From Isurus oxyrinchus (taxonomy: Eukaryota), in assembly GCA_026770705.1 (NCBI GenBank), contig JANJGN010000026.1, positions 29,574,001 through 29,638,000 of the forward strand: 64,000 bases of DNA, read 5' to 3'. The notes below the pieces were generated by a model. It saw only the letters and a list, made by a program, of their open reading frames with translations. It was not told the DNA's origin and searched no databases. Below, piece by piece: positions 1 to 36,098 of the stretch (position 1 is the stretch's first letter; the number at the start of each line of letters is the position of its first letter). The position numbers and the translations under genes were made by a program.

Positions 1-585
1 TGTATGAGTATGTTCATGTTTGTGTCCACATGGGTGTCTGTGAATGTGTTAGTCAGTTCCTCTGTGTTTTTGTATCTGGGTGTTGTCTGCTCATGTGTGT
101 GCATGTGTTAATGTATGTCAATGCATTGTTTTAATGTGTACGATAGTGTGTATCTTTCTGTCTGTATTTCTGTCATTGTGAACGTGTGATAATGCATATG
201 CTAAAACTTACATTTGTACTTTGTATCCTTGTATGAGTCTGCTTATCTGGTTTTATCTGTTTGTGTGTGTGTGATTGTGTACATGTGTGTGAGCGAGTGT
301 GTCTGTGTGTGTATTTCTGTATATATGTGATTGTGCGTGTGTATTTGTTTATGTGTGTACGTGTGTGTCTGTGTATGTTTGTGCATCTGTGTCCATGTGT
401 TTGTGATTGTGTGCACGTGTGTGTATATTTGTCTATGTGTGTCTGCCTGTGTTTGTGTGGGTGTGCATGTGTGGGTGTACATGTGTCTGCTTGTACCTGT
501 GTGTGTTTGTGTCTGTGTGTCTGTGCCTATGTGTGTGTGTATACACGTGTTTGTGTCTGTCAATTTGTGTCAGCTGTGTGTATTT
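1..585. repeat. Degenerate (TG)n low-complexity tract
   Basis: TG/TGTA-rich sequence; the overlapping C/V- and T/H-rich ORFs are by-products of the repeat. Confidence 0.9.
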
Positions 586-1074
586 TTACTATTTTTCCAA
601 ATTTCACCAGGTACCAATGATCGAGTCTGATCTTGACGGTGAAAAATTTGGTGAATATTTTCAATATTCTGTGTATAAACATGTTTTCTGTGAGATGCAA
701 GGTGATATCAGGTGAACGAATGCAAACAATTAACCACGAGCCTCATAAAAGTTCAGGGACAGAACCTTGAATAACCCAGGGAGGATTTAAACATCAGTTT
801 AGATTCGGATGATGGGAAATCAATCTTAGCATAAGCTTAACAGGGACAAGAGTGTTAAAACATCTTCAAGTTATGTTGCATAAATAGATGTTTTTACAAC
901 ATCCTAAGCATGATGGGAGTTTAAAATCTAGCCAGAAAGCTAGAAGTTGACTTGGACTGTTGGTAACTGAGTCCTTATAGTAGAGACCCATTCCCTTCCA
1001 GATTCTCTGCTCGGGGACTGAGGGTCCAGTGAGTTAATAGTTTTGCTCTGTCTGGTTGTCTAAGCAATTTCTCT

Positions 1075-1470
1075 TTTAGTTCTCTCTGCTGAGAAGGTGG
1101 AGACACACCGAGTTAACCAATGACCTTCCTCGTCTTTTTGTTTAGCAAGTGGAGGTAAAATTGACTTAATATTTTCCTTTCAGTTTTCTCTGTCGGGTAA
1201 GTGGAGGTACAGTGGGTTACCAGTTTTCCTTCCCCTCTCTCTGTTGGGAAAGTGGGGGTACAGTGGTTAATCAATTCCACCCCCCCCCCACGACCTGCTG
1301 TTGTGGAAGTGAAGGTGCAGTTGTTTAACAATGTCCCCTTCCCCTCTCTCCATTGGGAAAGTGGGAGTACAATGGTTAACAATTTCCTCTCCCCCTCTCT
1401 CTGTTGGGGAGGTGGAGGTGCAGTGGGGTAACAATTTCCCTTCTCCCTCTCTCTGATGGGAGATTGTTGG
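1075..1470. repeat. Degenerate ~50-60 bp minisatellite, about 7 copies
   Basis: Recurrent ctctctgttggg(a)aagtgg(a/g)ggtacagtgg(g)tta units. Confidence 0.7.
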
Positions 1471-1869
1471 GACATATTTCTGTGTGACCCTAACTTCAGT
1501 TCCCAGTGGGTGTGGTGCAGAAGCTTAAAGCTGACATCCATTTTAAAGGGATGGACGACAAGAGAAGCAGGAACACCGAGATCTAAATGTGCTGTGTTTG
1601 TTTATCAGAATTGAGAAATTGTCAGATTTCTCCTCAGCGGGAGGAGATCTGGTGAATTTATTTTGCAGAATCCTGTAATGAATGAGCTTTACACTGTCTC
1701 TAATCCAGGGTGTATCTGAGCTGGGACCACTGGATGTACAAGACTTGGGTCTGAGCCCTGTGAGTATCGATTTTAACAAAACACATCTAAAATTAACAAA
1801 AGTGGAAAACAACATTAATTAAACGATTGTGTATTTAAATCACGATTGGAGAAAAGGACTTTATTATTT

Positions 1870-1875
1870 TTTATT
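1870..1875 (-). promoter_or_regulatory. Poly(A) signal of the secretory mu transcript
   Basis: AATAAA on the minus strand about 30 nt past the native stop codon. Confidence 0.6.
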
Positions 1876-1902
1876 GAAGTTTGAAATGTAAACAAGAGAT
1901 TC

Positions 1903-2350
1903 TCATTGACATGAATTAACATGCTGCCAGACCTGCTGAGTTTTTCCAGGTAATTCTGTTTTTGTTTTGAATTAACAGTGTCCATCAGTGCAAGGGAAAT
2001 GTTCACAAAACTCGGTTTACCACCGGATTTGTCAACCGTTCTGTTGATGAACTTCAAGGGGATTGCTTCATGTCTCACCACACAGGAGTAAGAAGCGCCG
2101 CTGGCCCACTCCTCCACTGCAATGGATAACAGGCTGTACATGAAGAAGGAGCGATTGTCATTCTCCGCCACTACCTCGGTGTTCTTGTAATTCCCGGGAT
2201 TCACAGGCTTGTCTTGACAGTCCACTTGACGAAAAATCTCTCGCAGGGAGAAACCTGTCACTAAACAGCTGAGGGAGACGAATCTCTGAGCGGAGACATC
2301 TTCTGCCGAGGGCAGGAGGACAGACACGGACGGTTCCCGCGAGTCTTTAA
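1903..2350 (-). pseudogene. IGHM: IgM heavy chain Cmu4 exon plus secretory tailpiece, damaged
   Basis: Acceptor ttttctgcag|2350. Reads [34 protein letters not shown]...[41 protein letters not shown]. Native TGT CAA TGA (CQ*) at 1911-1903 is displaced by an insertion. Internal G|GTAAA transmembrane-form donor at 2020. A local +1/-1 frameshift removes the conserved Trp. Confidence 0.92.
1922..1967 (+). mobile_element. 46-bp Penelope-like element 3' fragment with 10-bp target-site duplication
   Basis: 46/46 identical to 49520-49565; flanked by TGAATTAACA at 1912-1921 and 1968-1977. Confidence 0.9.
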
Positions 2351-2489
2351 CTGCAGAAAATGTACAATAAATGTCAATAAACTGGATACTTTCCTAGACA
2401 ATGAAACGGCCGGTTAGATGTGAGAGAAACGTGTTTTGTGATGAATATTAAGGTTTTCATTATCCACTTTTCGGAACGATATCACCGAT

Positions 2490-2675
2490 CCTTCACTATA
2501 GCTGAATCCAAATCCTGGAACTCCCTCCTTAACAGCACTGTGGGTGTATCTACCCACATGGACTGCAGCCGTTCAAGAAGGCAGCGCACCACTACCTTGT
2601 CAAGGGCAATTAGGGATGCACAATAAATGCTGGCCCTGCCAGCGACGCCCATATCCCATGAATTAGTAAATAAAA
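2490..2675 (+). mobile_element. LINE (CR1/L2 clade) 3' end fragment
   Basis: aaatcctggaactccc...gggcaattagggatg..caataaatgctggc tail, repeated at about 8960-9145, 27120-27245 and 29335-29370. Confidence 0.75.
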
Positions 2676-3064
2676 TACTTTGGGATCTGTCTGGCTTTCC
2701 AGCTCGGAGCAGAGTTGGCACAATCCTTTTCCCTGAGAACTTATGGGGTTGGACGAGAAAGTTTCTCAAAGTTTACAGCACAGAAACAGGTCATTCTGCC
2801 CAACTGGTCCATGTTGGTGTTTCAGCTTCGCACCAGGCTCCTCCCATCTTGCTTCATCTAAACCCAATGGCACAGCCTTCAATTCATTGTTCATTCATCT
2901 TACTTATCAATTTCCTCCTGAAAGTCCACAGGCCCAGACCGTTTAGTTGGCAAAATTGCTTATCAGAGTAGACCATGAATACACTGAATAGTAAATATTG
3001 ATCCTGACACTTACACTGGAAATAGACACACTGAACTACTTATTGCCTCAATCTCACTGCTCAC

Positions 3065-3376
3065 CCGGTTCCTTGTGGATGGAAGTTCTTAAAGGAGTCG
3101 GCAGATCCTGATGGCTCACCACGCAGTAGAACTCAGCCCCACTCAGCCAGGCTTGTATCGAGATGTCTACGTTGCTGACCACGCTGTCGGGATCCTCTCC
3201 TGGTTGGACGGCGATCTCTGATTTCAAAGGCTTCTTCTCTTGTGCCCAGGACACGAGGACTCCATAAGGAGCATTAGAAACGATGCAGGTTAAGGTCATG
3301 GTCGCCTCCAGTAAGACCTGTTCTATTGGCGGTGGCAGTAGAGTAATTGTGGGATCATTGGGGCAGTGTTGATCAC
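3065..3376 (-). CDS. IGHM: IgM heavy chain Cmu3 exon
   Basis: Open C1-set domain [30 protein letters not shown]...VSW...[26 protein letters not shown] acceptor and phase-1 G|GTGAG donor are intact (312 bp). Confidence 0.9.
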
Positions 3377-3994
3377 CTTTGAGACAGAAATAAAGATCAA
3401 CCATAGTTTCACCTTCAGAAGCAGGACAGCAGTATTCAGCCTTCACTCCCTGAAGGAGAATAAATCACCTTGGACATATCAACCTCTAACTATTGTCTTT
3501 AATTTTGTTTACACAATGGAATACCAGCTTGGTCTGTGTAAATTGTTCTCATAATTTAAGTCCTTCAGCCTCGGTAACATTCTCATGAATCTGCGTTGCC
3601 CCAGTACCAATACAAATGTATCATTCTCGGGCCCTGGAATGCAGTACTGAAAGCCATTTTATAAATAGGGTGGATGCATTTCCAACACTCTATCCCAAAG
3701 CTGTTACCAGTGAAGGGTTCCAGACACCTTCTACCTCTCTAACTATGATCAGCTGACTCAGGGTAAAGCTGATATCAAGTCCACCTCACTCACTCTGTGA
3801 CGTCAATGTAGAGACGTGATGTGATAAAATCCTGAATGGTGAACAATCCGAATGCAGCCATTACATCGGAATTAAACAATAACTATATGATAGTAAATTA
3901 GAAGTTGTTCCGTCTACTAACTCCAATAAATTCCTGATTTGATTAACGTTGGAGTGGAGAATGATCTATTGCTTCCTCGATTTGTATTTCTTAC

Positions 3995-4309
3995 CCTCAC
4001 ACTTGGTGGTGTTTCGACTTTGGGCGACCTCTTGGTGAGTGACCTGACAGGTATAGACCGCGTCGCTGAACCATTCCCCAGCAGAGACTTCCAGCCGACT
4101 GGTGGCCGAGAAGTTCCCGTTCATTTCAAAGGCGGGAGAGGTGACAATTCCTGAATCCATGGGTTGTCCATTCTTCAGCCACTTCACGGTCATTGAATTT
4201 GGTTGGAAATCGATGATTGAACAGACGGCGGTTGCAAATTTGTTGGTTGTGATTTCTTCCCGGGAACTCACGGTGAGGAGAACAGTTGGAGGGAAGATGT
4301 CAAGAGGAC
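3995..4309 (-). CDS. IGHM: IgM heavy chain Cmu2 exon
   Basis: Open C1-set domain [36 protein letters not shown]...KWLKNG...YTCQVTH. AG acceptor and G|GTAAG donor are intact (315 bp). Confidence 0.88.
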
Positions 4310-4779
4310 CTTCAAAAATACAGGTTAAACATTTCTTGCAGAAGAAATTGATAACAGATACAATTAATTCCTACATTTTAATAGGTACTTTTCCATTATT
4401 AGACACTAACCGAGAATTTGCAGGGAACAAATCTATGCAAAGCACTATAAATATGTTATAACAAAGGCCCTATACAGCTCGCTTTCCAGCATATAGGATG
4501 ACATTATTTTGAGTACTTCAATAACTTTATTCCCATTGTTAATTTACAGGATTCTGATTCCCGCATGCAGTCCCCACAGGGATCTCTCATATCAGTTGGT
4601 ATCCATAGTTTTCCGAGAAGTACATTAGCCAGACTGTATTAATGAAATAGCATTGATGTTATGGAGATAAAAGTGGGACCTTAACAGTGCGTAGTCTCAA
4701 TTGCTATTGTACGATATACCTTTATTATTTTCTTCACTGCTCTCCATATTCTACATTATATCAAATTGATAAATTTGTG

Positions 4780-5736
4780 AGCTGGAACATAACAGCCCTC
4801 ACACCCTGGCCTGAGATTAACCCATCCAATCAGATTGGAAATACAAGTCTTGTGCCCTCAACTAACAGCACATTCCATGCTTTAAAACGACCGCCTTCCT
4901 CTGCCTCATTAGCTTATTACTTGTTTTGGCTATTAATGGGAACGCAATTGCATAGCGGCATATCATTAGATTAAAGAAACTCTCGTCAGCATCTAAAGTG
5001 CTTGTGCTGGACTTAACCATCACCAACTTGTTGGTTATTGTTGCGTCCACACTTGATATTATTGCTATTACCCTAGATGATATTGCAATGCAGTTATATA
5101 ATAATTTTATCCTTCTCTTGTATATAGACAACTTTTATGCCAATGCACCTTTCTTAGCCTGCATTGTTGTTGACCAATACATAGCTGTTGCCTATCCCAC
5201 CAGGTCTCAGGCCTGGAGAAAGCATCGATACTATGTTATATTGAAACTTGGCTGGAAGTCTTAGCTCTGAGTTTAATTATTCTTTTCAGAATGATAAGAA
5301 TATTATATAATAGAGTTTCATGCAAGGAAATGTCCACGGTGTGCAGGCCACGGGAAATCTTCATGCTGATTTCTGAAATTATGTTGTTCGCCATTCCAGC
5401 CTTGATTCTGTTCATGTTCTATGTACTAACATCACAGAAACTAACAGGAGTGGGAACTGGGAAGCAACCCATGGAGTTGACGAAAAGAAAATGTTGAAGA
5501 TAGATGCTGGAATGTTGGTTCCTCTCCTTTTCTGCTTTGCCCGTTATCACGTCCCTGAACTATACTATGGGGCTCAGGATCTGCTAGATCCATCATATCC
5601 AGTCACAGCATTTTACTGGTGCAACTTTCCATTTTACGTGTGGGTTGTCACTTCCTTCTCTGCCTTTCTAAATCCCTTGCTGGGCATTTTCAGGTCCCAG
5701 AACTTTAATTGGAGATCGGGCTGTTGTATCGCGTAA
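4780..5736 (+). pseudogene. Single-exon rhodopsin-family GPCR pseudogene (P2Y/LPAR/GPR4-like delta branch)
   Basis: Across frames: N-terminal NxS/T sites, TM1 LLLVLAINGN followed by an in-frame TAG, TM2 VLDLTITNLL, TM3 FLACIVVDQYIAVAYP (DRY-like), TM5 LFAIPALILFMFY, TM6 LLFCFARYH, TM7 FSAFLNPLL. Several frameshifts. Confidence 0.8.
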
Positions 5737-6362
5737 TGTTTTGGAAACACACCCTCAGCGCGCCCCCATATTGATCGGCTTTCGGCTTTAGTTTAAAGTC
5801 ACTCTAGGTACTTTTCCACAGTAATGTTTGAACAGAATGCATGGGATACGTTGAGACCCTAAGTAACCTTAATTAGGCCAAATGTTTTAACCAAAGAAAC
5901 ACCGTACAACAAAAACAGTTCCATCTTGTGTGCAGCTTATTCATCCAGAACCCATTTTGCAACCCGTATCTGCTATGTTCATGCGCGTGTTATCATTCTA
6001 TTTATCGACAGACAGGTCTATTTTTCTGCCTGCCCGATGCAAGGGTGATAACAGCTTTTGTATATTATCAAGGACTTCAGCTGCTGGGGGAAGGGTGACT
6101 CGGGAAAATGTATTAGGCTTTCCTTTCAATTTAACACTTTGCTCTGATATTTTCATTGATGTGTCTTTATCAAGATTTTGCTAATCAGGGGTTGCGATTG
6201 TTGGGTCCAGAAATCATCCTCTGGCTGCCCGGCCATGTCTCGATTCAATCAGAATTGAACGGACAATTGCAACGCCCCCTACTGTCTGGTAACATGTTAG
6301 CAAAGGTCACGGACATTCCAACGAATCGGCTGGGTTCTTGACGGGTTTGAAGAACTGAATAG

Positions 6363-6398
<36 letters not shown>

Positions 6399-6979
6399 CG
6401 AGAAAGTAAAGGTTTCAAGATTCAAGGAACTACTGTAGCTTCAAATGGACGTCCTGTCACCATATCTCAATGTAGAATTGTGTCCATGACTAACTGTCGA
6501 TAAGAAAGACAACGATTAGCATTTTGCCTGAATAAATGTCGGGTCATTACGCGGAATGGCGTTTCTTTTTTAAATCAAGCCTTGCTGTTGATAAAAAAAA
6601 TAAACTACAGACGTAGGTAATAAGGTGACTTAACACATTTACATGAAAAAGGAGGTACAGTGAAGTGTACATAAACAAATAATACCTGCATTTACCACCC
6701 ACCATCAGGTGTAAGGAAGGATTTACAGGGTGATAATCAACCTGTTTTGCCACGTCACGAATGCATCTTCCGTGGCCAACATGTCCTTGAGTGGAACCCG
6801 AAGCTTATTGCCCAGAAGTAGGGACGCTACCCAATGCACCATCAAACCTCATGATCCGTACACAAATAGATAGATAAACCAGTAGATCGATAGTTACCCA
6901 GACTGATGGATAGTCCAAGGTTAAAGAGACAGATTGACGGAAGTGCAAATGAATATGAAATAAGCATAACAGGAGTAAC

Positions 6980-7137
6980 CCTTGTAATCCACTCCAGTCC
7001 CTGACCGGGTTTCTGTCTGTACCAAAGCATCGCGTAAAAGCTGGACACCTCATAGCTGCAGTCCATCTGCACCGAATCCCCGCACTGGACTGTTTTCGAT
7101 GCGGGAGATTGAAGCACACTGTCCGAGAGACATGGAC
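6980..7137 (-). pseudogene. 5' half of a TCR alpha/delta-like V exon, no RSS
   Basis: tttccag|GPCLSDSVLQSPASKTVQCGDSVQMDCSYEVSSFYAMLWYRQKPGQGLEWITR, then V similarity is lost. A leader-like LKLLSVILARRT G|GTAGGT lies near 7230-7267 without an in-frame ATG. Confidence 0.75.
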
Positions 7138-8959
7138 CTGGAAACGTATTTAGGGTATGAAACACTGGATAAACGAGATTAATAATCAACAACTCACTCT
7201 GGGTTATTGGGTATTTGTCCTGTACCTACCTGTTCGCCTCGCCAGAATGACGGATAATAGCTTTAACTGTGCAACACAACATATGTTTGCTATGAGAATG
7301 TCAACAGAAAAACGGGACACCGCTCACAGCAGAAGAAAGCGAATCTGGTGCAGAGATTAACATGTTGGCTGATTGAAGTCAATGTTGGATACTCAATGTC
7401 TCGGTCACGTGTTTATTTTTCCCACTCCTCATTGGCTGGAAATTGATACTGTTCACCGGAAAGAAGGAGGTGGTTTGTTGGTCCGCTGCTCAGTTCTCCC
7501 GCGGTTCACTTCTGAACCAATCAATTTGTTAGAAGAGCAGCAGCTTCTTCTGCTCCGGGTGGAGGCAAGTGAGGAAGCACATCTCTTTATGAGGGTCACT
7601 CCCGTAAGCGACCATCCTGACACTGGGTGTTCAACTCTAGTTGAAAACGTCCCTTAAAGGATGAGTGATCTCTCGAGGAACTGTACCTCAGTAAACAGTT
7701 AACACCATCAGGACAGCCTAAGGAGCCATTTCCTTGCAGAATATGTGGCCCCTGTGGGCTTGTGCCTCACAAAGCAATTAGTGCTTGCCTTGAAACCCTG
7801 GAGTCTGAAGACGCGAGATCCATTTTCTGAGATGGAGCAGGAGCAGATCAGATGGGTTCACATTGCCATTCCTCTCCATTTAAGAGCCCACAAAATGAGA
7901 AAGAGCCACATTTCCTTCAGAAGGGATGGTGGGGGCGGAGAGGAATGAGGGCAGCTCTTGTAGCAGAGATGTGGTGGAAATTGTGTGGCTTCCGCAGTAT
8001 TAATTACTCTCCCATTATTCCCCCTTACAACGGATTGTGGAAACATTGACAGTGGATGTGAGATCAGCAAAAGTGACTCAACTCTCCACATCTTATCCTA
8101 GGCGAATGGGACAGCGGTTATCGTTTTCCCTGCAGACGGGTGAATCATTGAGTCCGAGTGGATTCCAGGAGCGAAATAGGATTTGGAAGCGCAGATTGGA
8201 TGATGGATAATTCGAAAACTCCAGGAAAGGAGCAGGGCGATTTCTGGGCTTCGTCTGCCACCTGTTGGAGGAAATCAAAATTTCACCCCAGCAATTTCTC
8301 CTTCCATTCAGCGGTCGAGAGTTACTCTTCAATGCCGCTTAGGCAGCAACTGCCCCGAATCGGCTGTGGTGGCAATTTAGCAGTTGCATGTAGTACATGA
8401 CAAAGTTCAGTGAACAGGTCAGATTTCCAGGAGACCTCCCAGCTGAAATAATAGAAACAGTATTAGTAACCCTGCCCTCTCCCACTGGGGGCAGAGTTGA
8501 ATTCTTGCCGCTACACATTTCAGATAGTATTTTCCACGATTTTAAAGCTTTTATCTATTGTATCGATCATTCTCTTATTAAGGTGATGGTAATAAATGAA
8601 CTAAGTTACTAAACCAATCATATAATTATACCATTGCCATTAGTCAGTCTGTCTCCTGTGATCTAGCTCGTTTTCGGAAAAAATATACTTTATTCATGAA
8701 ATATCTGAAAGAACATTACAAAGCGTTTCAAAATGGCCATCACAAAAAGAGCAGTCATATTTCGCTTTTCCACATAGATCATGAAGTGCTTCAGCAGAAT
8801 CAATTATCATTACATTCCAACCTGGTCTTTACAGGCAGTCCAGCCTTGTTTTTCCTCACAGTCATACAGCGCAATTGTATTTCAGGTATCTAAATAACTG
8901 TTGCACTTTAATGTACTTCAATGCAATTGTGACACATGTAGTATTCACTGCATACAGTT

Positions 8960-10289: not shown

Positions 10290-10590
10290 ACTTTTTGTAC
10301 AGGGGTGGGACTGATTTTCATCACTGTGAGACGGCACCGTCAGTGAGCTGCAGACCCGAACTGGTGAATTTATTGGCGATCTGGAGCACTACAGAGAAAT
10401 GACTTCTCGCAAATTCTGCTTTATGTTCATTGTTAGCAGTATCCTTAATGCTGACTCGCCGCATTGTCGCTGTCCACCCTGTCAAAGGGCTGCTCGATAT
10501 TTGAAGACACCCTATCTAATGCCCGCCCTCAACAATCTGTTGTCGTGTCTTAGGATGATTGCACCTCTATTCCTGTGTCCCCTGTGGTGC
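10290..10590 (-). pseudogene. Internally deleted V pseudogene (family of the 29-kb V) with intact 23-RSS
   Basis: Promoter and leader start homologous to 28850-28980, joined directly to FR3 homologous to 29755-29850. CACAGTG 10328-10322, 23-bp spacer, ACAAAAAGT 10298-10290. Confidence 0.75.
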
Positions 10591-10634
10591 AGCGAGACCA
10601 ACAGGTTTTGAGAGCAGAGAGTCAGTGACCTGGA

Positions 10635-10880
10635 TTGAACGTGGGCGACCCGATGTGAGCTCAGAGACACGGTGAGCCGGTGTCAGGGTGAAATATTGAA
10701 TATGGGAGGCACGGTGTGAGCTCAGGGACACGGTGAGCCGGTGTCAGTTTGAAATATCGAATGTGGGCGGACAGATGTGAGCTCAGAGACAGGGTGAGCC
10801 GGAGTTAGTGAGAAATATTGAATGTGGGCGGTCCGGCCTGAGTTCAGAGACAGGTTGAGCCGGTGTCAGTGAGAAACCTC
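10635..10880 (+). repeat. 61-bp minisatellite, about 4 copies, upstream of an intronless V
   Basis: gagctcag unit starts at 10657, 10718, 10779 and 10840. Confidence 0.85.
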
Positions 10881-11047
10881 GAGTGGATAAATGCCAAGAC
10901 TCGGCATCTTTCGTTAGTTCGACAGGAAGGCGCCTCTGGGTTGAACCTGAAGCTCCTTGTTGAATCTTCTGAATATAATATCCATCTCCTGCTTCTAACT
11001 TGACCCCTTTGGACAATTGCTTCAACACCATTTTATCGGATCTGATA

Positions 11048-11416
11048 ATGCTGAGAATTCGCAAAGTCCTTTTGCTGTTTTTCACTAAATCTACACAGAG
11101 GTGACCAGAGAAGATGAGGTAACGCAGCTCCCTCGGCAGATGGTTGTTAGTGAAGCGGGAATCGCAGCCATGAACTGCACCATCACCAGTGTGTTCAGTG
11201 CCGTGTACTGATACAGGCAGCTCCCGGATCAGCCTGCCCAGTATCTGGTTATGGCCACAAGAAGATCCAATCAGCACGAGAGAATCACTGAACAGTCGGT
11301 GGAGATAACAAACTCAGTACCCCGAAAGTGAGGGGCGCTTGGCTCCCTGACACTGCCACCTATCTCTGCACCATGATGCAGAGTGCAACAAAAGATGTCG
11401 AGCCCAAACAAAAACC
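11048..11416 (+). pseudogene. Intronless leader-V pseudogene (paralog of 17054-17386)
   Basis: MLRIRKVLLLFFT..., frameshifts, TGA at the conserved Trp, DTATYLC. RSS CAGAGTG 11379, 22-bp spacer, ACAAAAACC 11408. Confidence 0.85.
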
Positions 11417-11855
11417 TGCAACATGATGGAGTTCCTCTCCACTGTCTTTTGGGATTGGTATTATGACTGTTACGATTATAAAAATCCGAGGGCCGGCCAT
11501 TGAGCTCAATTAGAAAATGTATATGCAGGAGAAACCTTTAAATGAAGCCTCAGTAAAGAGATGCATATATAGACAGAGTAAAATGAGGGCTAAACACGCA
11601 AGCCGGAATGAGTAAGAGAGAAAGGAAAAGCTTTGTTAGAACACTGGACCAGGAAAAGGAGAGAAAGGCAAGGTGGAAAATTGAAAGTTAAGCTACAGGA
11701 AGCAGGAGATGATGTTTTCACTGTTTCGGCTTCAGTGTTAGGAAGTGAACAACGTCCAGTAACTTTGTTGAACAAACGGATTACAGAAAGACTTACAATA
11801 AAGGCATTGCTTTGAAATTGGTGTCACTGTTTTTTATATGTTCTTATATCATTGT

Positions 11856-12265
11856 CAGCCCTAGTTCAGTTGGTGCTGCGCTCTCATCAGAATGACAATG
11901 TTCCCGGGTTCAATCTCACTCCAGGACTTAACTAAAAATTCAAAGCTGACAGTCAGGTGCATTTCTGAAGGAGGTGACATCTTTCAGGTGAAACATGAAA
12001 ACGAGACGGCATCTCCCTGCTCCGGTGATTGTTAAATACCTCGTGGTACAACTTCCAAGAATAGCGTTGGAATTATCCAATGTTTATCCTCCAGGTTATC
12101 TCGTCATTACCAAATTTCTGTATGTGGGAGATTGCCAATTGGAAATTGGCTGTTGAAGTTCCTACATTACAACAGTGACCCCGCTTTCAAAAATACTTCA
12201 GTGCTGTTAAATGCTTTGAGGCGTCCAGTAATCATGAAACGTGCTAAATAAATGAAAACCTTTCC
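11856..12265 (+). mobile_element. Old tRNA-derived SINE (DeuSINE/SacSINE1-like)
   Basis: tRNA-like head (tagttcagttggt...gggttcaatctc), Deu-like core and L2-type tail. Reverse copy near 60210-60560. Family name is from recall. Confidence 0.6.
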
Positions 12266-12649
12266 TTATTTGTTGTTTTGATTAACGTTTATCCATGTGG
12301 TTATTAAGGTTGACAGATTGGAAACATCAGCACAAAACATTGCACCCATCCGGGATAGTCCAGGAGCTCAAAGTACAAAATAAAATATTAGGTTTGGAGT
12401 AGTCAAATTCCAATTACACAGATAGTGGGTACTCAGTGTGGGGTATGGATTCAATTAGAGAGCAGGAGAAAAAAATCACTGAAATTGTTGGATGCCACAT
12501 TGGAAGGTGGGGATTTGGATATCTCGGGATCAGTGAACCACAGGAGGGAATAGCTTTTCTTAATTGCAACAGTCATGGAAGCTGCAAACTGTGGGAATTT
12601 GGTGTCAAAAAAGCACCACGCAATTGGCTGTAGGAGCCACAAGGAGGGG

Positions 12650-13450
12650 ATGTGAAACTGTGAGAAATACTGGTGATCATTGAGCGAAGATAGTTGGCCT
12701 CTCTGACAAATACTGCGTGTGGCTGGCTCAGCGTGAGCTCAGAGAGTGTGAGCTGCTCTCAGTGAGAAACACTGAGTGTGGACGGCCCGGTGTGAGCTCA
12801 GAGAGTGTGAATTGGCCTCAGTGAGTAACATTGAGTGTGGGCGGCCCGATGTGAGCTCAGACAGTGCGAGCTGGTCTCAGTGAGAAACATTGCGTGTGCG
12901 TGGCCCGGTATGAGCTCAGAGAGTGTGAGCTGGTCTCAGTGAGAAACATTGAGTGTGGGCGGCCCGGTGTGAGCTCAGACAGTGTGAATTAGTCTCAGTG
13001 AGAAACATTGAGTGTGCGTGGCCCGGTATGAGCTCAGAGAGTGCGAGCTGGTCTCAGTGAGAAACATTGAGTGTGGGTGGCCCGGTGTGAGCTCAGACAG
13101 TTTGAATTAGTCTCAGTGAGAAACATTGAGTGTGCGTGGCCCGGTGTGAGCTCAGAGAGTGTGAGCTGGTCTCAGTGAGAAACACTGAGTGTGGGCGGCC
13201 TGGTGTGAGCTCAGAGAGTGTGAGCTGGTCTCAGTGAGACACACTGAGTCTGGGCATCCTGGTGTGAGCTCAGAGAGTGTGAACTGGTCTCAGCGAGAAA
13301 CACTGAGTGTGGGCGGCCCAGTGTGAGCTCAGAGAGTGTGAGCTGGTCTCAGTGAGAAACACTGAGCGTGGGCGTCCAGCTTTGAGCTCGCAGAGTGTGA
13401 ACTGGTGTCCTGCAGAAAGACTGAGTGTGGGGTACCGCTTGTGAGCTCAG
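12650..13450 (+). repeat. 59-bp minisatellite, about 13 copies
   Basis: Consensus gagctcagagagtgtgagctggtctcagtgagaaacactgagtgtgggcggcccggtgt; unit starts every 59 bp from 12735 to 13443. Confidence 0.95.
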
Positions 13451-13666
13451 AGGCAGTGTGGGAGGGAAGGGGAGGGTGTGGTAGGATAGTGGCCCGGGAA
13501 CATGTACACTCTGAGAACAGGTTCTTCGGTTTTTCTCTTCGAAAATACCTCTGATCTGGACCTGAAGCGGTTGATTGGCTGTTTGTTAATCCTCTTGAAT
13601 TAATATCTGGTTCGAACCCGGCCTCTGTGGAGAATTCTTTCCACCAGCATTTCACCTGGTCAAATA

Positions 13667-14034
13667 ATGTTGCGGATTTACTGAGTTATCGTGCTGCTTT
13701 ACACACTTCCCTGAACGGACAAGTGAAGATGACGTGGTGCAGCTCCCTGGGCGGCTGGTTCTCAGTGAAGCTGGAATCACATCCATGAGCTGCTCGGCTA
13801 CCACTGCGTTCACCACCCTGCACTGGAACAACCATCGCCCGAATCAGCCCCTCCAGCATCTGGTGATGGCTACAAGTGGGACCGATCAACAAGGAAGGAT
13901 CACTGCTGCAATCTGGGGAGGCACTAAATTCAGTAACATGACAGTGAGGGCTGCGTGAGTGACAGACAGCACCACCTATCTCTGTGCCGTGATGCCAAAG
14001 TGTAACAAACAGGCGGAGAGTCTGTACAGAAATC
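13667..14034 (+). pseudogene. Intronless leader-V pseudogene (paralog of 17054-17386)
   Basis: MLRIY*..., VQLPGRLVLSEAGITSMSC...W...QHLVMATSGTDQQGRITA...*VTDSTTYLCAV. RSS CAAAGTG 13996, 23-bp spacer, ACAGAAATC 14026. Confidence 0.85.
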
Positions 14035-14624
14035 CACACCCAGTGGGGGAGCTGCTCTGCTGTGTTTTGGGGTATCCGGTAATAATAATGGAAAGCTATA
14101 GCGAATGAGCATAAAATAGAAAATAGTGAAGCTACAGAGTTCAAAAAGTGTGAAACAAAGAGAATTGGAAACACAGACAGGGACAACTGAAGAGCAAACA
14201 TAAAAGAAAAATGAGTGAGGGCGAAGGGTAGAAAACTTTGCTAAATGAGCATAATTTTCAAAACACGATTAGGTTGAAACCCATTTGGGAATACGTTTTA
14301 AGCTAAGGATTTACTTCTGAACACAAGCAATCTGAGTTGTGCCCATGACATTGTCTGTGTGCATGTGTGTGTTTGTGCTTGTGTGTGTGCACGTGTGTGT
14401 GTGTGAGTGTGTGTGTGTGCTGTGGCCAATGAGGATAAGACAGGATCCTCACACATCCTCTAGGTCTTTGGCTGAGGTATCAGGGACAAAGCAAAACTGC
14501 ACAAGAGACTGCTTCCTGGGCCACATGTAGTGATGATTCACGCTAACAGCGCCAATGGCCACAAGTGGCTGATTGAAACCGGACTCTTGTCTGAAGCAGG
14601 AACTGATGAGGACCCGCTGTGCTG

Positions 14625-14770
14625 AGAGAGGTGGGGCGGGAGCGCGGGGGGAGGGGGGGAGATAGGGAGGCGGGGCGGCGAGGCGGCTGGGAGGCAGGAC
14701 GGTGGGCGGGGAGGCGGGGAGGTGGGGTAGCGGGGCCGTGGCACGAGGGGTGGGGGGGCGGGTGGGATGT
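14625..14770 (+). repeat. G-rich low-complexity tract
   Basis: More than 12 runs of G3 or longer. Confidence 0.8.
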
Positions 14771-15509
14771 CTCACTGAAGGAGCGATTCTTTCATTTGGC
14801 TGTGGGAGGTTTTTAATTGAAGAAAGTAACTCAGTTTTCGGCCAGGAGAATATTGGTCCTGTGAAACAGTTTGTTTGAATCTGCATTTGGAAAACCACAA
14901 CAGCACGTGTTGTTTTTGGGAAGTTGTAGATTGTACTTCTGTTTGAACTAAAAGGCAATTTCTTAACTTGGGTAAAATGTCCTGAATATTTCAGTTGAGA
15001 CTCTATAAGAGCAATTGCCAAAAAGATGGTTTCATTGTGGAGCTTTGGTGAAAATTAAATTGAAGTGAGAGCTCGTTATTTCGATCTGTCAAATTGTTTG
15101 TTCAGGAACAACATATATCATTGTTCTAATATGAAGAGCCCATAAATATCTCCGAAGAATTATGGAATCATACTTCGACAATTGGTTCACTGATCTGACA
15201 GGAAAATATGACTGAAGTCACAGTTAGCAGCATCATATTGGTGAAACTGCTAGAATGTAAGAGGGAGAATTAACACTAGAATAAGTCAAAGTCAGTCATA
15301 ATCTCATGTTTCCAATCACAATAACCAATCAATGAATTCTGTCGCCTCCCACCACCCCGCACCCCCACCTCACCCTGACGCACACGACCCCAAAGTTTCT
15401 AACAACGAAACCATTACGCCTATGAGAACACTGACTGTTGCCCAATGCGAGGTGTTTGCACTTACTGACAACCAGATCACCACGGTCCGGACTCACAGTA
15501 CTACTGAAG

Positions 15510-16330
15510 ATAGAGGAAAGTGAGGTGAGAGCATCCTGAGACACAGCAATAGGTCATTGAGAGCGAGGATGGAAAAAGCGGCCTTCAAATATCTAACTCC
15601 TCTTTTACAGAGCGGACAGTGACAATGTGGCGACTCAGCATCTGGCCTGCGTCAGGCAGCTGAAGCCTTGAAATATTTCAACTGATGAATTTAGTCGAGG
15701 TTCAGGAGATCTGGAGAAAAACGGACTTTGGCAAAATCTGCGTCATCCAAATTACCAAAAGAATATTTCCACAGTAGAAACTCGGGCTGCGTGTCTGAGT
15801 ATTGCTGGTAATGGTATAAATTATATCTGTTCGATGTAGTATCATATATACAGCAGCGGAGCGCGACTGACTAATATAATCCCCATGAATTATATTTGAA
15901 AAACAGGGCCCAACAGGAAAAGAATATCGACTCACGGTTGTTTAAAATTCAAACTAAATCCATACTTGGGAAATTAGAGGTAAAATAAAACTTGGTTAGT
16001 CCAGATTTACCCTTCAGTAATGATGCCTGCGGTGCATGACTGCTCTCCCTTCAACACAGAGTTGTGGAAAGCAGTTCCACACCTCCACAAAAAAACCGCT
16101 TTGGCCTGTGTGTCTGAGCTCCCACCTGTTGGCGGGTGTGCGCAACCGCACCAATGAAACATCTCAGACAAGATGCGAGAGGAAACCAAATAAACCGAGG
16201 ATAAAGCTGTTATCAACAGTTTCCAGGAGGGGCCGAGAGAACAAACTTCAGAATCCAATCGGAGCGACACCATTGATCAATCTGCCAGTTAAACTTTCTT
16301 TCCTGTTTCTAATCAACTAGTTCTGTCAAT
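15510..16330 (+). pseudogene. Highly decayed V remnant (family of the 29-kb V)
   Basis: Promoter and leader start (ttttacagagcggacagtgacaATG) match 28940-28975. RSS-like cacagag...acaaaaaaa at about 16055-16095. The 3' flank matches 30020-30115 and 35860-36010. Confidence 0.55.
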
Positions 16331-17014
16331 AAAATCAGAGATCTATGTTTAGATAATATCCAAGAAAGAGGCTGCTGAAACCCAACCTCCATTAAACCTG
16401 GGCGGCAGCATCTTACAGAGCCTGAGACTGGGGTCACGACAATGTGATAATCTACCGATCGCAAAGTGAATCGCGGAGCTGGAGGGAAGCGAACAAAGGG
16501 AAACTGAACAGAAGGGATTAATAGAAGTAAAAACAGAGAAACCAGAGAAAATAAAACGGAAAACTTATTAAAATGTATTCAATACAACAATGCAACTGAT
16601 TGAATGAAATTAAGATCTTGTCAATGCCCCTGAGTGAGGGTTGCCTCGGAGGATCAGCTCAGTGCCTGTCTGTCCTCAATGGCTAACTCCGTTTTTTTCT
16701 CCACCTTTCTCACTCTTTTCTTTCTATCTTTTTTACTGTCTGTTTCAATAGTTTCTTAAATATCTGTCCTGTTCAAATATTATTACTGCAGCTTTTCTCA
16801 GGCTCTTTTTCGCTACATGTTCTGCCCGACGTCTTCACTCTTCCTTTTCCACCGTCTATGTTTCCAGCTCTCTTTATTTCCGACTCTCTAAATATGTCTT
16901 CTATGTTTCATTTATTTTGGCTCTCATATCTCCTACCTTCCGATCATTTTATAACCGCGCCACTCGCAATGCTGAAAGTCCAAAAACAGTAGAGCGGCTG
17001 TCCCACTCGGTGTA

Positions 17015-17053
17015 GGTTTCTGTACGAGCTCCCCATATGTTTGTTACACTGTG
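17015..17053 (-). promoter_or_regulatory. 23-RSS
   Basis: CACAGTG, 23 bp, ACAGAAACC. Confidence 0.92.
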
Positions 17054-17386
17054 GCTCACAGCGCAGAGATAGGTGGCAGTGTCTGTAGCTTGGGTATCGC
17101 TCACAGTCAGGATACTGAGTTTGCTACCTTCACTGATTGAAGCCGTGATCCTCCCCTGTTGACCGGTTCCTCTTGTGGCCATTACCAGATACTGGGGTGG
17201 CTGATTCGGGAGCTGTCTGTACCAAGACACGAGGCTAAACGCTGTGCTGTGGGAGCAGTTCATGGTCACGTTTCCTGCTTCCCTAACGAACACCTGCCCA
17301 GGGAGATGCACCGCCTCATCCTTACCGGCCACCTCCGTGAATGTCAGAGTGAAAAACAGCAAACAGATTCTGTAAATTCTAAGCAT
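17054..17386 (-). CDS. TCR alpha/delta-type V segment, leader and V in one exon, apparently functional
   Basis: MLRIYRICLLFFTLTFTEVAG-KDEAVHLPGQVFVREAGNVTMNCSH...WYRQLP...DTATYLCAVS. Both Cys and the Trp are present, and the RSS follows directly. Confidence 0.92.
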
Positions 17387-18373
17387 TATCGAATCACATG
17401 AAATACCGGTTGTAACAATTGTCTCGGGAGGTCAGGTTAGAAGAAGGAGATGGATATCATATGCATCATAATTAACAAGAAGCTAAACACGGGCTTCAGG
17501 TCCAACTCAGAGCTACCTTATTGTCGATTGAACACAAGAAGCTCAGTCTTGGGGCTTACACGCCCATATTCAGCGTGTCACATTGACACCAGCTCACCCT
17601 GTCTGTGAGCTCGCACCCGTCCGCCCAGATTCAATTTTCTCATTGGTTCACATCGCTCTCTCATGGCATGTACCGGTAAGTGCGTGATTTCCCGCCAAGC
17701 TATAGTACACAAGATAGTTAGATAGACAAGTTAGAACAGTTATTCCCTCGTTCCTACTCTAGGTCTCTTATCGGGGGAGACCCTACATCACACCTTCAAC
17801 TGTAGCATCCAACGATTCCAGTGCATTCTTCTCTCGAATTCTGGCTGAAGCTTTAGTCCACATTGCGATAACTCAGTGTGACAACGGGAAGGTTTGCCCG
17901 AAAGTCTCCTTTCATATTGCGAACCCTTGTGCTTCCCCACTTGGTTGCAGTGCGAGCTATTTTTTCAAATATTAACAGCATGCCAACAGTAATAGCAGCA
18001 TTGACAACTCATTATAATGAATTACGTTAAATAATATAAAACACGCTGTGAATATTGAAATATTTTTGCTTCCACATGTGTTCCTTTGATGACATTTTCT
18101 TCAATAAAGTCACCGAACATTGTCCTCAGCCTGGAATTCGCCCCAACACTAAACACAACAGTCTCCCACTGCCCTCTGGTGGCGGTGACTGGAACTATAA
18201 GGTGCAGCTTTCGAGCACTTGTTAGCCTTCCGCATTCAAGGTTGCATTTAACAATTTTCCTACAGCATTTTTTTCTTCTTTCTATGTTTTCCCTTTGCAT
18301 TTTGGACGGAATCTGCTTTCCTTAGATACACCTCTTCAAAACCTACATTTCGTTCCTTTACTTGCCCCAACAC

Positions 18374-21300
18374 CATAAGACAATATGACCACAAGACAAA
18401 GGAGCAGACATGAGGCCATTCGGCCCATCGAGTCTGCTCTGCCGTTCAATCATGGCTGATAGCTTTCTCAACCTCATTCTCTCGCCTTCTCCCCGTAACC
18501 TTTGATCTCCTTACCAATCAAGAACCTATCTATCTTGGTCTTAAGTACATTCAATGACCTGGCCTCCACAGCCTTCTGTGGCAATGAATTCCATAGATTC
18601 ACCACTCTCTGGCTAAGGCGGTTTCTCCTCATTTCTGTTCCAAAAGGTCATCTCTTTACATTGAGGCTGCGCCCTCGGGTCCTAGTCTCTCCTACTAATG
18701 CAAATATCTTCCCCACGTCCACTCTATCCAGGCCTTTCAGCATTCTGTAAGTTTCAATCAGATCCCCCCCAACCTTCTAAACTCCATTGCGTATAGACCC
18801 AGAGTCCTCAAACGTTCTTCATATGTTAAGTCTTTTATTCCTGGAATCGTTCTCGTGAACCTCATCTGGATGCTCTCCAGGGCCAGCATATCCTTCTGAG
18901 ATATGGGGCCCAAAATTGCTCACAATATTCTAAATGTGGTCTGACCAGAGCCTTATAAAGCCTCAGCAGCACATCCCTGCTTTTACATTCTAGTCCTCTC
19001 GAAATAAATGCCAACATTGCATTTGCCTTCCTAACTACTGACTCAACCTGCAAGTTAACTTTAAAAGAATCCTGGACTAGGACTCCAAAGTCACTTTGCA
19101 CTCCAGAGTTCTGAACTCTGTCCCCATTTAGAAAATGGTCCATGCCTCTATTCTTCCTACCAAAGTTCATGACCTCACACTTCCTCACGTTGTATTGCAT
19201 CTGCCACTTCTTTGCCCATTCTCCTAACCTGTCCAAATCCTTCTGCAGCCTTCCCACCTCCTCAATACTACCTGTCCCTCCACCTAGCTTTGTATCATCT
19301 ACAAACTTAGCCAGAATGCCCTCAGTTCCTTCATCTAGATCATTAATGTATAAAGTGAAAAATGGTCCCAACACTGACCTCTGCGGAACTCCATCAGTCA
19401 CCGGTCGACATCCTGAGAAGGACCCACTTATCACCACTCTCTGTCTCCTGCCAGAGAGCCAATCTTCTATCCATGCTAGTACTTTGCCTCTAACACCATG
19501 GGCCCTTTTGTTATTGAGCAGCCTCCTGTGCCGCACCTTGTCAAAGGCCTTCTGGAAGTCCAAGTAGATAACATCCATTGGCTCTTCCTTGTCTAACCGA
19601 CTCGTTACTTCCTGAAAGATTTCTAACAGATTTGTCAGGCATGACCTCCCCTTGATGAAACCATGCTGACTTTGCCCTATTTTACCATGCACTTCCAAGT
19701 ATTCTGCAATCTCATTCTTAATAATGGACTCTAAAATCTTATCAACGACCGAGGTCAGGCTAATCGGCCTGCAATTTCCCGTCTTTTGCCTCACTCCCTT
19801 CTTAAACAGGGAGGATACATTAGCAATTTTCCAGTTCTCTGGGATGCTCTCTGACTCGCGTGATTCCTGAAAGATCAGCACTAATGCCTCCACTATCTCT
19901 TCAGCTATATCCTTCAGAAATCTGGGGTGTAGTCCATCTGGTGCAGTTGATTTATCCAGCTTCAGACTTTTCAGTTTTCCTAGCACCTTCTCCTTGGTAA
20001 TGGCCACCATACTACCCCTGCCCCCCGACTGTCCTGAACTTTGGGGATGTTACTCGTGTCTTACACCGTGAAGAATGATGCAAAGTACCTACTCAGTTCC
20101 TCCACCATTTCTTTGTTCCCCACTACTACTTTTCCAGCGTCATTTTCCAGCGGCCCAATGTCCACTTTTGCCTCTCTCTTACCCTTCATAAATCTAAAAA
20201 AAATCATCTTGCAATCTTCTTTTATATTACTGGCTAGTTTACCCTCATAGTTAATCTTCTCCCTCCTTATTTCTTTTTTAGTTGTCCTCTGTTGGTCTTT
20301 GTAGGCTTCCCAATCCCCTGGTTTCCCATTGCTCTTAGTCGTGTTGTGTGCTTTCTCTTTAGCTTTTATGCTGTCTCTGACATCCCTTGTCAGCCATGGT
20401 TGCCTCGTCCTCCCTTTAGTATGCTTCTTCTTTCTAATGATGATTTTTTGCTGTGTCTCCAAAATTACTCTCAGAACCTCCTGCAATTGCTGTTCCACTG
20501 TCTTTCCTGCTGGTCCCATCTCCCAGTCAATTCTGGCCAGCTCCTCCCTCATGCCTCTGTAGTTGCCTTTATTCAACTGGAATGCTGTTCCAGCTTTTTC
20601 CTCTCAAATTGCAGGGTAAATTCTATCATATTATGGTCACGTCCTCCTAAGGGTTCCTTCACCTTAAGCACTCTTATCAAATCTGTCTCATTTCACATAC
20701 TAAATCTAGAATTGCCTGTTCCCTAGTGGGGTCCACCACAAGCTGCTCCAAACAGCCATCTCATAGACAATCCACAAATTCCTTTCCTTGGGATCCACTA
20801 CCAACCTAATTTTCCCAGTCTACCTGCATATTGAAATCCCCCATGATCACTGTAACCTTGCCTTTCTTACACGCCTTTTCTGTCTCCTGCTGTATCTTGT
20901 GCCCCACATTCTGACCACTGTTCAGAGGCCTGTACATAACTCCTATTATGTTTTATTTTACCATTGTGATTCCTCAATTCTACCCACACAGATTCCACAT
21001 CATCTGACCCCACGTTGTTTCCTGCTATCGATTTAATTTCATTTCTTACTAACAAAGCAACCCCACCACCTCTTGTAACCTGCCTTTCTTTTCGATAAGA
21101 TGTATATCCTTGGATATTTAGCCCACAGTCCTGATTCCCATGCAGCCAGGTCTCCGTGATGCCCACCACATCATACCTGCCAATTTCAATCTGCGCCACA
21201 AGCTCATTTACCTCATTTCGTATACTGCGTGCATTCAGATACAACACCTTCAGTCCTGTATTTCCCGTCCCCTTTCTCATTGTCGTCCCTTTATCTGATG

Positions 21301-22135
21301 TGTTGAAAGTTAGATTCCTAGCCTTTTCCAAACACTCTGTCCTATTTTGTGTTCTGCAGAATTTAATAGCCTCTCCTGGGCTCTCCTTTCTTTTCAGTTT
21401 TTTCATAATTTTCCATGAAGTTGAATCCACCCCCCCCCCCAACATGCTAAACTGCTGCTTTGTTTCCCATTAGTCATACTTCTTGGGGTTTTACCCTTCC
21501 GTTCCCCTCCTCTTTCTAGTTGAAAGTTCTGTTGACCACCCAATTTACCCTGGGAACATTGGTCCCAGATCGGTTCAGGTGGAGACCTTCCCAACGGTAC
21601 AGATGTCTCCATGCCAGTGCCCCACGAAATGGAACCCCTCTTTCCCGCACCACTCCCTTAGCCACGTGTCTACTTCCCTTATTCTCGCGTCTCTATGCCA
21701 ATTTGCACGTGGCTCGTGTAGTTATCTGGAGATTATAACCCTTGAGGACCTGTTCTTTAAAGTATTTCCTAATTCCTGATAATCCCCAAACAGGTCCTCT
21801 TTCCTTGTTTTATCTAAATTATTTATCCCGACGTGGACAACAACAAATGGATCCTCCCCTCCCCCTCCAATATCCTTTCAAGCTGGTTAGAGTCGTCCCT
21901 TACCCAGGCACCGGGCCGGCAACATACCAAGCATGACTCTCGATCCTGCTTACAAAGGATGGTATCAATTCCCTTAATTGTAGAATCCCTTACAAATACC
22001 ACTTGTCTTTTTGCTCCCCCCTCTTGAATGGCTTTCTTTGCCACGGTGCCGTGGTCAGCTGGCTCATCCTCCCTACAGCCCTGTTCCTCATCCACATAGG
22101 GTGCAATTACCTCGTACCTGTTGGGAAAGGTCAAG
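18374..22135 (-). mobile_element. CR1-clade LINE, long copy with frameshifts (ORF1 esterase, ORF2 endonuclease plus RT)
   Basis: ORF1 RQVVFVRDSTIKGID...CRPGAWVRD; endonuclease LKVLYLNARSIRN...DVVGITETWL; RT DVIYLDFQKAFDKV...GVPQRSVLGP...KFVDDTK; (tcttatg)-type 3' tail near 18374. Confidence 0.93.
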
Positions 22136-23239
22136 AGCTAGAGCACACAACAGAATGGGTATCAAAAAATTATTACAGTATTAAACAATCTACAATTAGA
22201 ATACATGAACTGTTTGAGTTTTAACACATTCAGTGAAGGCGGGATGGGCCGAAGGTTATCATTGAGAGAAATGAAGTATAATTGTTAAAAAATAGTTTCC
22301 CTGAAGAGATTAATTAGAAAATAAGAGATTTAAAATAAAAAGGGGAATGTCTCAGAGAGAGAAAGGGAAAGAGGAAGGCAGCATTGAGAGAGAGAGAGAG
22401 AAAGAGAGCGAGTGAGAACAAAGTGGTTCAGTAAATTAGCCGCTTTCTCAGACAGAAAGAAGAGGGAAATTAAAAGATTTTTCTGACAGCGATGACCACC
22501 TCAGCAACGGAATGGCCAATATGACACGAATTTCCAAACAAGAATGCATAACAGAAAATGATATCAATAAAAATTGTCGGTATTGAAAGATCTGCAGTTA
22601 CAGTTTGAAGAAGAGAAAATAAAATGCTGAAACATTCTGGTGAAGATAAATCTTATATATTTGTGGAATGACAGTGGAAGCATGAAAAATGATTTGTTTC
22701 TATACAAACACACAGAACAGGCGATATCTGAAATGTAATTCCGTTGATGCACTGAAACTGAATATCAGGCGCTGCGCAAAACGGATGGCCACTCCGATAC
22801 CACCCGGTTTAGGCCAAAGCCACAGGCAAATTACGAGCACAACATCTTTACTTATAATATTATCTGTCCATCTCACAGGGGCGTAGACTAATACAGTAAT
22901 AACTGAGACTGGGTGTAGTATAATATAAGCAGAGAAATGGGCTAGTGCAGTAATAACAGAAACAGGGACTAGTGTTATAATAACAGATACAGGGCCCATT
23001 GCAGCTTTAACTGATTTAGGAAACTGTGTGATATAAACAGAGACATAAACTAATGAGAGAGATAGATCTATCTATTTAAAGATAGAGACATTGAATTATA
23101 AAGAAAGCTAGTTGAAACGAGAAAGAGACAGAATAATTGATTATGTGAGACAGAGCAGGGGAGCGAGAAAGACAGGCAGACACAGCCGGGGTGGAAGGTG
23201 ATTGGTCAGTGTCAGCTATACATTACCCTGAACCAACAG

Positions 23240-23450
23240 TAATTGGTGCAGAGCTGACTTCATATCTGAGAGACCAGCCAATCGTAGGGCTTAGAAGCGC
23301 CCATCAGTTCCCCAAGAAGAGAAAACTGCCTTTGGCATAAGACTCCAAGCGTCAACATATTTTAAACAGCTTGCTGTTTACTATCGAATCAGGAACCACG
23401 TGTTCCTTGTGTGCTTTACTAATAATAATGGTCGTACTGCACGGAGAGTC
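23240..23450 (+). pseudogene. Orphan V promoter plus dead leader (paralog of 33860-34090)
   Basis: Shared ctgagagaccagccaat block. The leader has ACG for ATG and GAGAGT for GTGAGT. Confidence 0.6.
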
Positions 23451-23639
23451 TGAGCTAAAATCCTCAGTGTGTGTTTCATGGGTTATATTTACTCACAGAT
23501 TTTGACACATTCTGTAAGCATTCACCTTTTAACTCTTTCAGGGATGAGCCAATCGGCTGCGAGGTCCGGCTGATACTCAACAACTTAAACAATTCTGGTG
23601 AAACTCACTGTGTTCAAATCTACCATCAGCTCCCCGAAC

Positions 23640-24060
23640 ATGCTGGGTGTTACTTTTTAATCATTCCTCGCAGCTGCAGCTCTCTTAACTGGTAAGATTG
23701 ACAAGTTACGCAATTTTCATCTTGATGGTGATACTGAGATAATAATCTTCCCTTTAACTGCCTTTTATCTGTATTTGCATATATCCCTTTAACTCAGTAA
23801 CAATTGGTTAAAATAAAAGTCTCATAAAAAGTTTAAGTTCTGTATTTCTAAATTTCTGCAGGTGTTCATGCTGCGGACTCTGTCTCGTAGGAGCCGGAGA
23901 GAGTGAAACAGTTTGATGGAGACTCGGTGAACATTAATTTCAGTTATGCGACCACTGCCGGTTTCTATTTCATACAACTGTACCGTCAGCACCGGGACCA
24001 GGCTCCCACACTCTTTATCTCCATCCCTTCTGCTGGGGATGTTTTCAGGGCAGAGGGCGT
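23640..24060 (+). pseudogene. Truncated TCR V pseudogene
   Basis: Leader MLGVTF*SFLAAAALLT G|GTAAG (23640-23691). V exon from 23862 reads VHAADSVS*EPERVKQFDGDSVNINFSYATTAGFYFIQLYRQHRDQAPTLFISI. No 3' end or RSS. Confidence 0.75.
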
Positions 24061-25440: not shown

Positions 25441-25514
25441 CAGATTTTTCATTTATCCTTTTCAATAAAAGCCACAACTATATCCTTTAGCTCAGGAAGT
25501 ACTGGTGGGCCAGC

Positions 25515-36090: not shown

Positions 36091-36098
36091 TGACGTCA
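36091..36098. promoter_or_regulatory. Palindromic CRE (TGACGTCA) in a V promoter
   Basis: 270 bp upstream of ATG 36361, with CRE half-sites nearby. Confidence 0.5.

Follow-up and report, generated by a model that had tools for sequence, protein, structure and literature searches.

The window, i.e. the whole stretch of 64,000 nucleotides analysed here (G000:C26:29574001-29638000), is free of N and lies within a 4.98-Gb genome. Near its left end, the minus strand carries three C1-set exons that are bounded by AG and GT in mutually compatible phases, and Pfam assigned all three to the C1-set family. The Cmu2 exon (3995..4309) has an open frame with an AG acceptor, a GT donor and phase 1/1, and the Cmu3 exon (3065..3376) is likewise open with canonical splice sites. 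The Cmu4 exon, which extends to the membrane donor (2021..2350), bears indels near 2232 and 2213 and is followed by the secretory tailpiece (1903..2020), which is split by an insertion and whose native Cys-Gln-stop is now out of frame. The 3' UTR and the Cmu4-TM intron (1..1902, minus strand) run on past base 1 toward TM1, and the homology to complete IgM clusters also extends past this point. A search beyond base 1, as proposed in the preliminary description of this DNA, located the exon TM1 (G000:C26:29572937-29572809) at ~1.1 kb past base 1, followed by TM2, both outside the window and both with canonical splice sites. Together, Cmu2-Cmu3-Cmu4-TM1-TM2 compose a membrane-form frame that is stop-free and in which every splice site is canonical.

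Homology searches revealed that the three exons correspond to domains 2, 3 and 4 of named shark mu chains with 63-84% identity, the top named homologs being the mu chains of Heterodontus, Triakis and Ginglymostoma. They share with the elasmobranch IgM minicluster (VH-D-D-JH-Cmu1-4-sec/TM) the exon order, this level of sequence identity, and the tail and TM exons. By these homologs the exons are identified as a shark IgM constant region, which by origin comprises domains 2-4, TM1/TM2 and a tailpiece, the last being disrupted. The AG/GT ends, the Pfam assignments and the homology to shark mu chains agree with the preliminary description of three mu exons with intact splice sites. The block as a whole is not intact, owing to three lesions overlooked in that description, the +1 and -1 indels of Cmu4 and the tail insertion at 1912-1967. 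A suspected loss of a Cys in Cmu2 proved wrong, as the paralogs carry the same residue.

Absence of the cluster head

Using the head of the C140 cluster as the query (word size 9, E<1e-3), blastn yielded no rows for Cmu1 or JH-D-VH in the window, in the 20 kb to its left or in the 81 kb to its right. Similarly, tblastn with the IgM of Triakis and nurse shark gave no CH1 or VH match exceeding the paralog background, and tblastn with Cmu1 and VH probes gave paralog-level matches only. The pattern of an RSS-flanked D segment has no match in the window, compared to two matches in each of two control clusters. The J motif is not present in the window either; it was found in two of the five other regions scanned, which are the two containing complete clusters. 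Altogether, these searches bear out the earlier statement that no Cmu1, JH, D or VH lies upstream of the three exons, and the VH, D, JH and Cmu1 that a functional IgM cluster has upstream in cis are missing.

In all nine complete clusters examined, Cmu1 ends ~200 bases upstream of Cmu2. At the present locus, a remnant of 168 bases of the Cmu1-Cmu2 intron is left on the minus strand (4310..4477), and the ~40 bases adjoining the Cmu1 donor are missing. The decapitated cluster put forward in the preliminary description is thereby supported, with the cut mapped to the base at 4477/4478. Two features of a CH1-less heavy-chain-only receptor are found here, namely the absence of CH1 and an intact acceptor at the next domain.

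Two joints and the GPCR-pseudogene block

The homology to all nine complete clusters stops at 4477-4490, where the IgM intron meets a block of 2.5 kb on the plus strand (4478..6979) that contains a broken P2Y-like class A GPCR. At this joint 1 (4476..4478), the two donors have two bases, AG, in common, and the microhomology sits inside ~20 bases of imperfect likeness between them. Paralogs of the whole block show 92-93% identity in C210, C242 and C301, and 87-90% in C140 and the right neighbour on C26. Two complete units (C140 and C26:29.66-29.74 Mb) carry the block at a distance of 64.5 and 69.2 kb upstream of the Cmu1-Cmu2 intron; its orientation there is as in the window, and block and intron are separated by Cmu1, JH and VH. 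The copies closest in identity (92-93%) belong to units other than the two in which this order was compared. Since the block has this upstream position and orientation in the two complete units, we infer that joint 1 would have arisen by a deletion of ~65-70 kb, followed by end joining on the 2-base microhomology.

At the other end of the block, joint 2 (6979..6980) is blunt, with 0-1 bases in common, and fuses the GPCR block to a TCR-type V exon, which it cuts in the middle and the paralogs of which are whole. What is left of it is the 5' half of a V pseudogene on the minus strand (6980..7260), which has lost the leader ATG, the 3' half and the RSS. In C242 and C301, the corresponding 7-kb V sits ~22 kb away on the opposite side of the GPCR block, and on account of this position joint 2 could be either a second deletion or a tandem-duplication joint. 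No CAC heptamer starts either broken end in the donor flanks, as inspected by eye, so a RAG-made germline joint is unlikely.

Other rearrangements were considered as well. The 100 kb to the left of the window gave no match to the head, the V or the GPCR block, and a tandem-duplication copy on that side was rejected. A balanced inversion or a circular insertion with a stranded head was rejected within the limits of the searches, as no Cmu1 without a Cmu2 was found. All eight copies of the lost intron piece adjoin their own Cmu2.

Alternatively, a real IgM pseudogene might have been fused in silico to mosaic repeats at 4477 and 6979. Such a misjoin would be favoured by a highly duplicated region with many near-identical unplaced contigs; however, the two joints have only 2 and 0-1 bases in common with no long repeat, a gap of N is absent, neither side of joint 1 has an equal elsewhere in the assembly (the closest other copies reach 95% and 93%), and a stranded Cmu1 was found in none of 60 cases. 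That the joint homologies are short, both sides unique and stranded heads missing speaks for a real locus, and we regard a misjoin as quite improbable. Joint 1 was further checked in eight sequencing runs, which likely come from relatives or other individuals, since the best share of words is only 0.27. No listed contig of these runs bridges 4477, such contigs being informative on presence and not on absence, and the loose contig ends at 4476/4477 continue into the two donor flanks. The cover across 4477 does not rise in three of four runs and is unclear in one, again in runs that are likely of relatives or other individuals. Contigs from runs guessed to be RNA derive from paralogs, and exhibit the ordinary Cmu2-3 and Cmu3-4 splices without the tail insertion.

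The duplication unit of IgM and TCR-V carries along a family of P2Y-like class A GPCRs. A diverged copy at G000:C26 ~29.671-29.672 Mb (L024) has an open stretch of 336 residues. In the window itself, a further open 7tm_1 GPCR stretch of 312 residues, which we take to be GPR139-like, is located on the minus strand (61674-60739).

TCR-type V segments and the IgM/TCR-V mosaic

Beyond the half exon, ~15 further TCR alpha/delta-type V segments are distributed on both strands (10300..56050), most of which are broken. The V segments at 17.0-17.4 kb (minus strand), 36.6 kb (plus strand) and 42.5 kb (plus strand) seem to be open and have a 23-spacer RSS. The best PDB matches of the segment V34k are TCR-alpha chains; for V17k the assignment is less clear, TCR-alpha being outranked by scFv and light chains among its structure matches. 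The remaining V segments were classed as TCR-type by their likeness to V34k or V17k in addition to 23-spacer signals. Thus the upstream V segments look TCR alpha/delta-type, as previously described, most clearly in the case of V34k and less so for V17k. The constant-region block does not directly abut this array, as had been proposed: the 2.5-kb GPCR block (4478-6979) intervenes, and of the first V only half an exon is left. In one V family, represented at 17431-17010 (minus strand), ~11.05 kb and 13.7 kb (plus strand), the leader and the V apparently share one frame, with an intronless leader; the 17-kb copy of this seemingly intronless-leader family is open and has a 23-spacer RSS.

Pattern searches throughout the genome detected 108 Cmu2-like and 60 Cmu1-like sites. 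Among the 63 paired Cmu2 copies only the present one lacks a Cmu1, a ratio that holds for the paired copies and not for the whole genome, as the pairing left out 37 of the 100 listed Cmu2 matches and eight unlisted ones; those left out lie on contigs without a match to the Cmu1 pattern and apparently belong to another subfamily. Conversely, none of the 60 Cmu1 copies lacks a Cmu2. Three Cmu2 copies were unpaired by pattern, two of which had a Cmu1 once they were fetched.

On C26, 38 Cmu2 copies in both orientations occupy 24.0-40.0 Mb, and paralogs of the 7-kb TCR V interleave with them over 23.1-39.2 Mb. The nearest complete IgM clusters are located 264 kb to the left and 156 kb to the right of the window. 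The preliminary description had raised the possibility of an IgH-TCR junction; the complete clusters on both sides and the TCR V paralogs interleaved over 16 Mb do not bear this out, and an arrangement with IgH on one side only and TCR V on the other is not found. The locus is one spot in an interleaved mosaic, rather than an IgH-TCR border. According to the available part of a recent study (Flajnik et al. 2025, PMC12227049), IgH clusters are in linkage with TCR alpha/delta among sharks and rays, with some TCR-type V exons between IgH clusters. The present region has both the linkage and the V exons between clusters in common with that antigen receptor complex, but here the interleaving repeats over ~16 Mb with 38 Cmu2, apparently on a larger scale than the "some V exons" of that part of the study, where no headless constant region is mentioned.

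Near-identical IgM clusters are present on several unplaced contigs (C301, C152, C210, C151 and C140) and on C26 at 35-39 Mb. Those on the unplaced contigs may be haplotype duplicates, which would inflate the copy counts. At ~29.31 Mb of C26 (L015/L016), the neighbouring IgM cluster keeps its JH and Cmu1, but its Cmu2 and Cmu3 contain stops and frameshifts.

Lesions and substitutions in the exons

In Cmu4, a +1 indel near 2232 is followed by a -1 indel near 2213, and the frame is restored within ~20 bases. This pair of indels replaces the C-strand and removes the core Trp, a residue that is kept in all nine paralogs and in all six IgM chains of other sharks having that segment. The private substitutions of Cmu4 in the present copy include Pro>Leu and Gly>Arg. 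The secretory tail is frameshifted by a 56-base insertion (1912-1967), which leaves the stop at 1903-1905 out of frame and causes the loss of the penultimate Cys. Within it, a 47-base retroelement fragment (1921-1967) is flanked by 9-base target-site copies (1912-1920 and 1968-1976). The insertion is absent from all ten paralogs compared. Hence neither the intact Cys-Trp-Cys core of Cmu4 nor the tail Cys of a functional IgM cluster is present.

The 47 bases of the fragment are identical (47/47) to 49519-49565, which is the end of an RT-bearing element, and this match suggests recent retroelement activity. The element itself (46725-49597; Pfam RVT_1), which is presumably Penelope-like, truncates the 46.5-kb V.

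Analysis of the private changes gave 18 N to 5 S for the present copy, where an N fraction of 0.72-0.76 is expected under neutrality (p=0.65; 10 aligned copies), a small count in which nine of the 13 aligned paralogs were used, five of them near-identical and with almost no private changes. A frameshifted paralog has a private N:S of 25:7, similar to that of the present copy. Three diverged paralogs with open frames, at most putatively functional ones, have a pooled N:S of 23:21, and their contrast with the present copy stays above 0.05 (Fisher p=0.063). In the present copy, the private density is 2.3% in exons versus 2.7% in introns (p=0.68), compared to 1.5% versus 3.1% in the three open-frame paralogs (p=3e-5). 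On these small counts, the exon rate equals the intron rate, purifying selection of the kind that marks a functional IgM cluster is not seen, and the private substitutions look neutral. As the head-bearing pseudogene at C26:29.31 Mb decays in the same way, the decay does not date the deletion of the head.

A probable pseudogene and its rival readings

Taking the joints, the lesions and the substitutions together, the locus is very probably a headless, decayed IgM pseudogene that originated when the germline was rearranged at two joints within a mosaic of segmental duplications. Judging from its sequence, the copy likely has no function and decayed after the deletion, a dead member beside dozens of complete ones. 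In the proposed course of events, an inherited deletion would have taken Cmu1, JH, D and VH and joined the Cmu2-Cmu3-Cmu4-TM half to the GPCR block, and a second, blunt rearrangement would have joined the GPCR block to the middle of the V. Without a VH promoter and a J, the exons would no longer be made into a receptor, and indels, the insertion and neutral substitutions would have gathered in them. Several observations stand against the pseudogene: its membrane-form frame is stop-free with all splice sites canonical, the two Cmu4 indels compensate each other within ~20 bases, and the N:S contrast with the open-frame paralogs does not reach significance at the 0.05 level. The compensating indels could likewise result if an open frame were selected for; alternatively, the pair might stem from one slippage event at a short local repeat.

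The open membrane frame, the intact splice sites and the compensating indels would also be compatible with a CH1-less membrane constant region in use, to which a VDJ might be supplied by inter-cluster switching, or a leader by splicing to Cmu2, so that the surface chain would be free of light chain or devoid of a V. In nurse shark, switching over >120 kb is described in the available text of PMC4279169, and the complete clusters here are 156 and 264 kb off; V-less IgW transcripts are also known from the part of PMC5192425 at hand, in which, however, promoters are reported at V segments only. Moreover, the Cmu4 core Trp and the tail Cys are lost and the N:S ratio is neutral, the switch target is down to 168 intron bases, a J is missing between Cmu2 and all of the V segments, the closest leader is without an in-frame ATG, and the arrangement exists as a single copy among the 63 paired Cmu2. 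The nearest intact leader donor found on the same strand is at ~38.1 kb, ~34 kb off, with its own V acceptor next to it; neither a J nor a leader donor in frame that could be spliced to Cmu2 was found. RAG joining requires a J ahead of the constant region, and, judging from the cluster structure, any nearby J would carry its own C exons.

We therefore consider it extremely unlikely that the region is used in this manner. The earlier suggestion of a CH1-less region fed by TCR-locus transcripts finds no support, in that there is no J and the nearest V is without its ATG and 3' half; nor does the idea that the region is in use, given the lost Cmu4 Trp, the lost tail Cys and substitutions that seem unconstrained. 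A germline CH1-less, membrane-only mu chain that would act with a switched-in VDJ as a light-chain-independent B-cell receptor is accordingly most improbable on the sequence at hand; if true, CH1-less membrane mu would be a natural way for a heavy-chain-only isotype to derive from IgM.

A further possibility, which we consider unlikely, is sterile read-through, in which the half V would, from its promoter at 7.3 kb, give rise to a non-coding or junk transcript that enters Cmu2 through a cryptic donor. The upstream region of the 7-kb V is ~93% like that of an open paralog, a candidate phase-1 donor (G/GTAACT) is present near 6897, and sterile Ig transcripts are reported in the available part of PMC5192425. 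Against it, a start codon in frame is lacking and only half of the V is left, so that the product would be no receptor. Such read-through is compatible with the pseudogene and does not amount to a different function.

Relation to known systems

CH1-less heavy-chain-only antibodies, known from camelids and mu heavy-chain disease, and IgNAR offer themselves for comparison. The present copy has in common with them the lack of CH1, and hence, if made, its chain would not depend on a light chain or BiP. They keep a promoter, a V, a J and an intact Fc, whereas the present copy is without the first three and its Cmu4 is damaged. In a literature search that ran mostly outside the subscription journals, no description of a CH1-less shark IgM locus was found.

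Similar to the present copy, the nurse shark IgM pseudogenes of groups 6-8 and G2C, as described in the accessible section of PMC2435157, are non-functional copies among many clusters. They still hybridise with a VH probe, whereas the head of the present copy is cut inside the Cmu1-Cmu2 intron. The nurse shark IgM1gj, in the portion of PMC5192425 that covers it, resembles the present copy in that one germline C domain is missing. It is without CH2 and keeps CH1 and a joined VDJ, pairs with light chains and is expressed; by contrast, the present copy is without CH1 and the whole V-D-J. IgH-V/TCR-delta trans-rearrangement and NAR-TCR, as summarised in the available part of PMC12227049, likewise depend on the proximity of IgH and TCR, and bring an Ig V onto a TCR constant region via D-J. 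The reverse joining would need a J before Cmu2, which is absent in the present copy.

Read as a relic, the locus is nothing unusual, a further broken IgM copy of a gene family that evolves by birth and death, and of modest value as a base-resolved record of how IgH clusters are shuffled with TCR V arrays and GPCR blocks in sharks. A deletion within the short Cmu1-Cmu2 intron yields a CH1-less constant region in one step, and domain-deleted isotypes could arise from raw material of this sort. More interesting than the present copy is the layout of C26, where 38 IgM constant regions interleave with paralogs of TCR V along 16 Mb.
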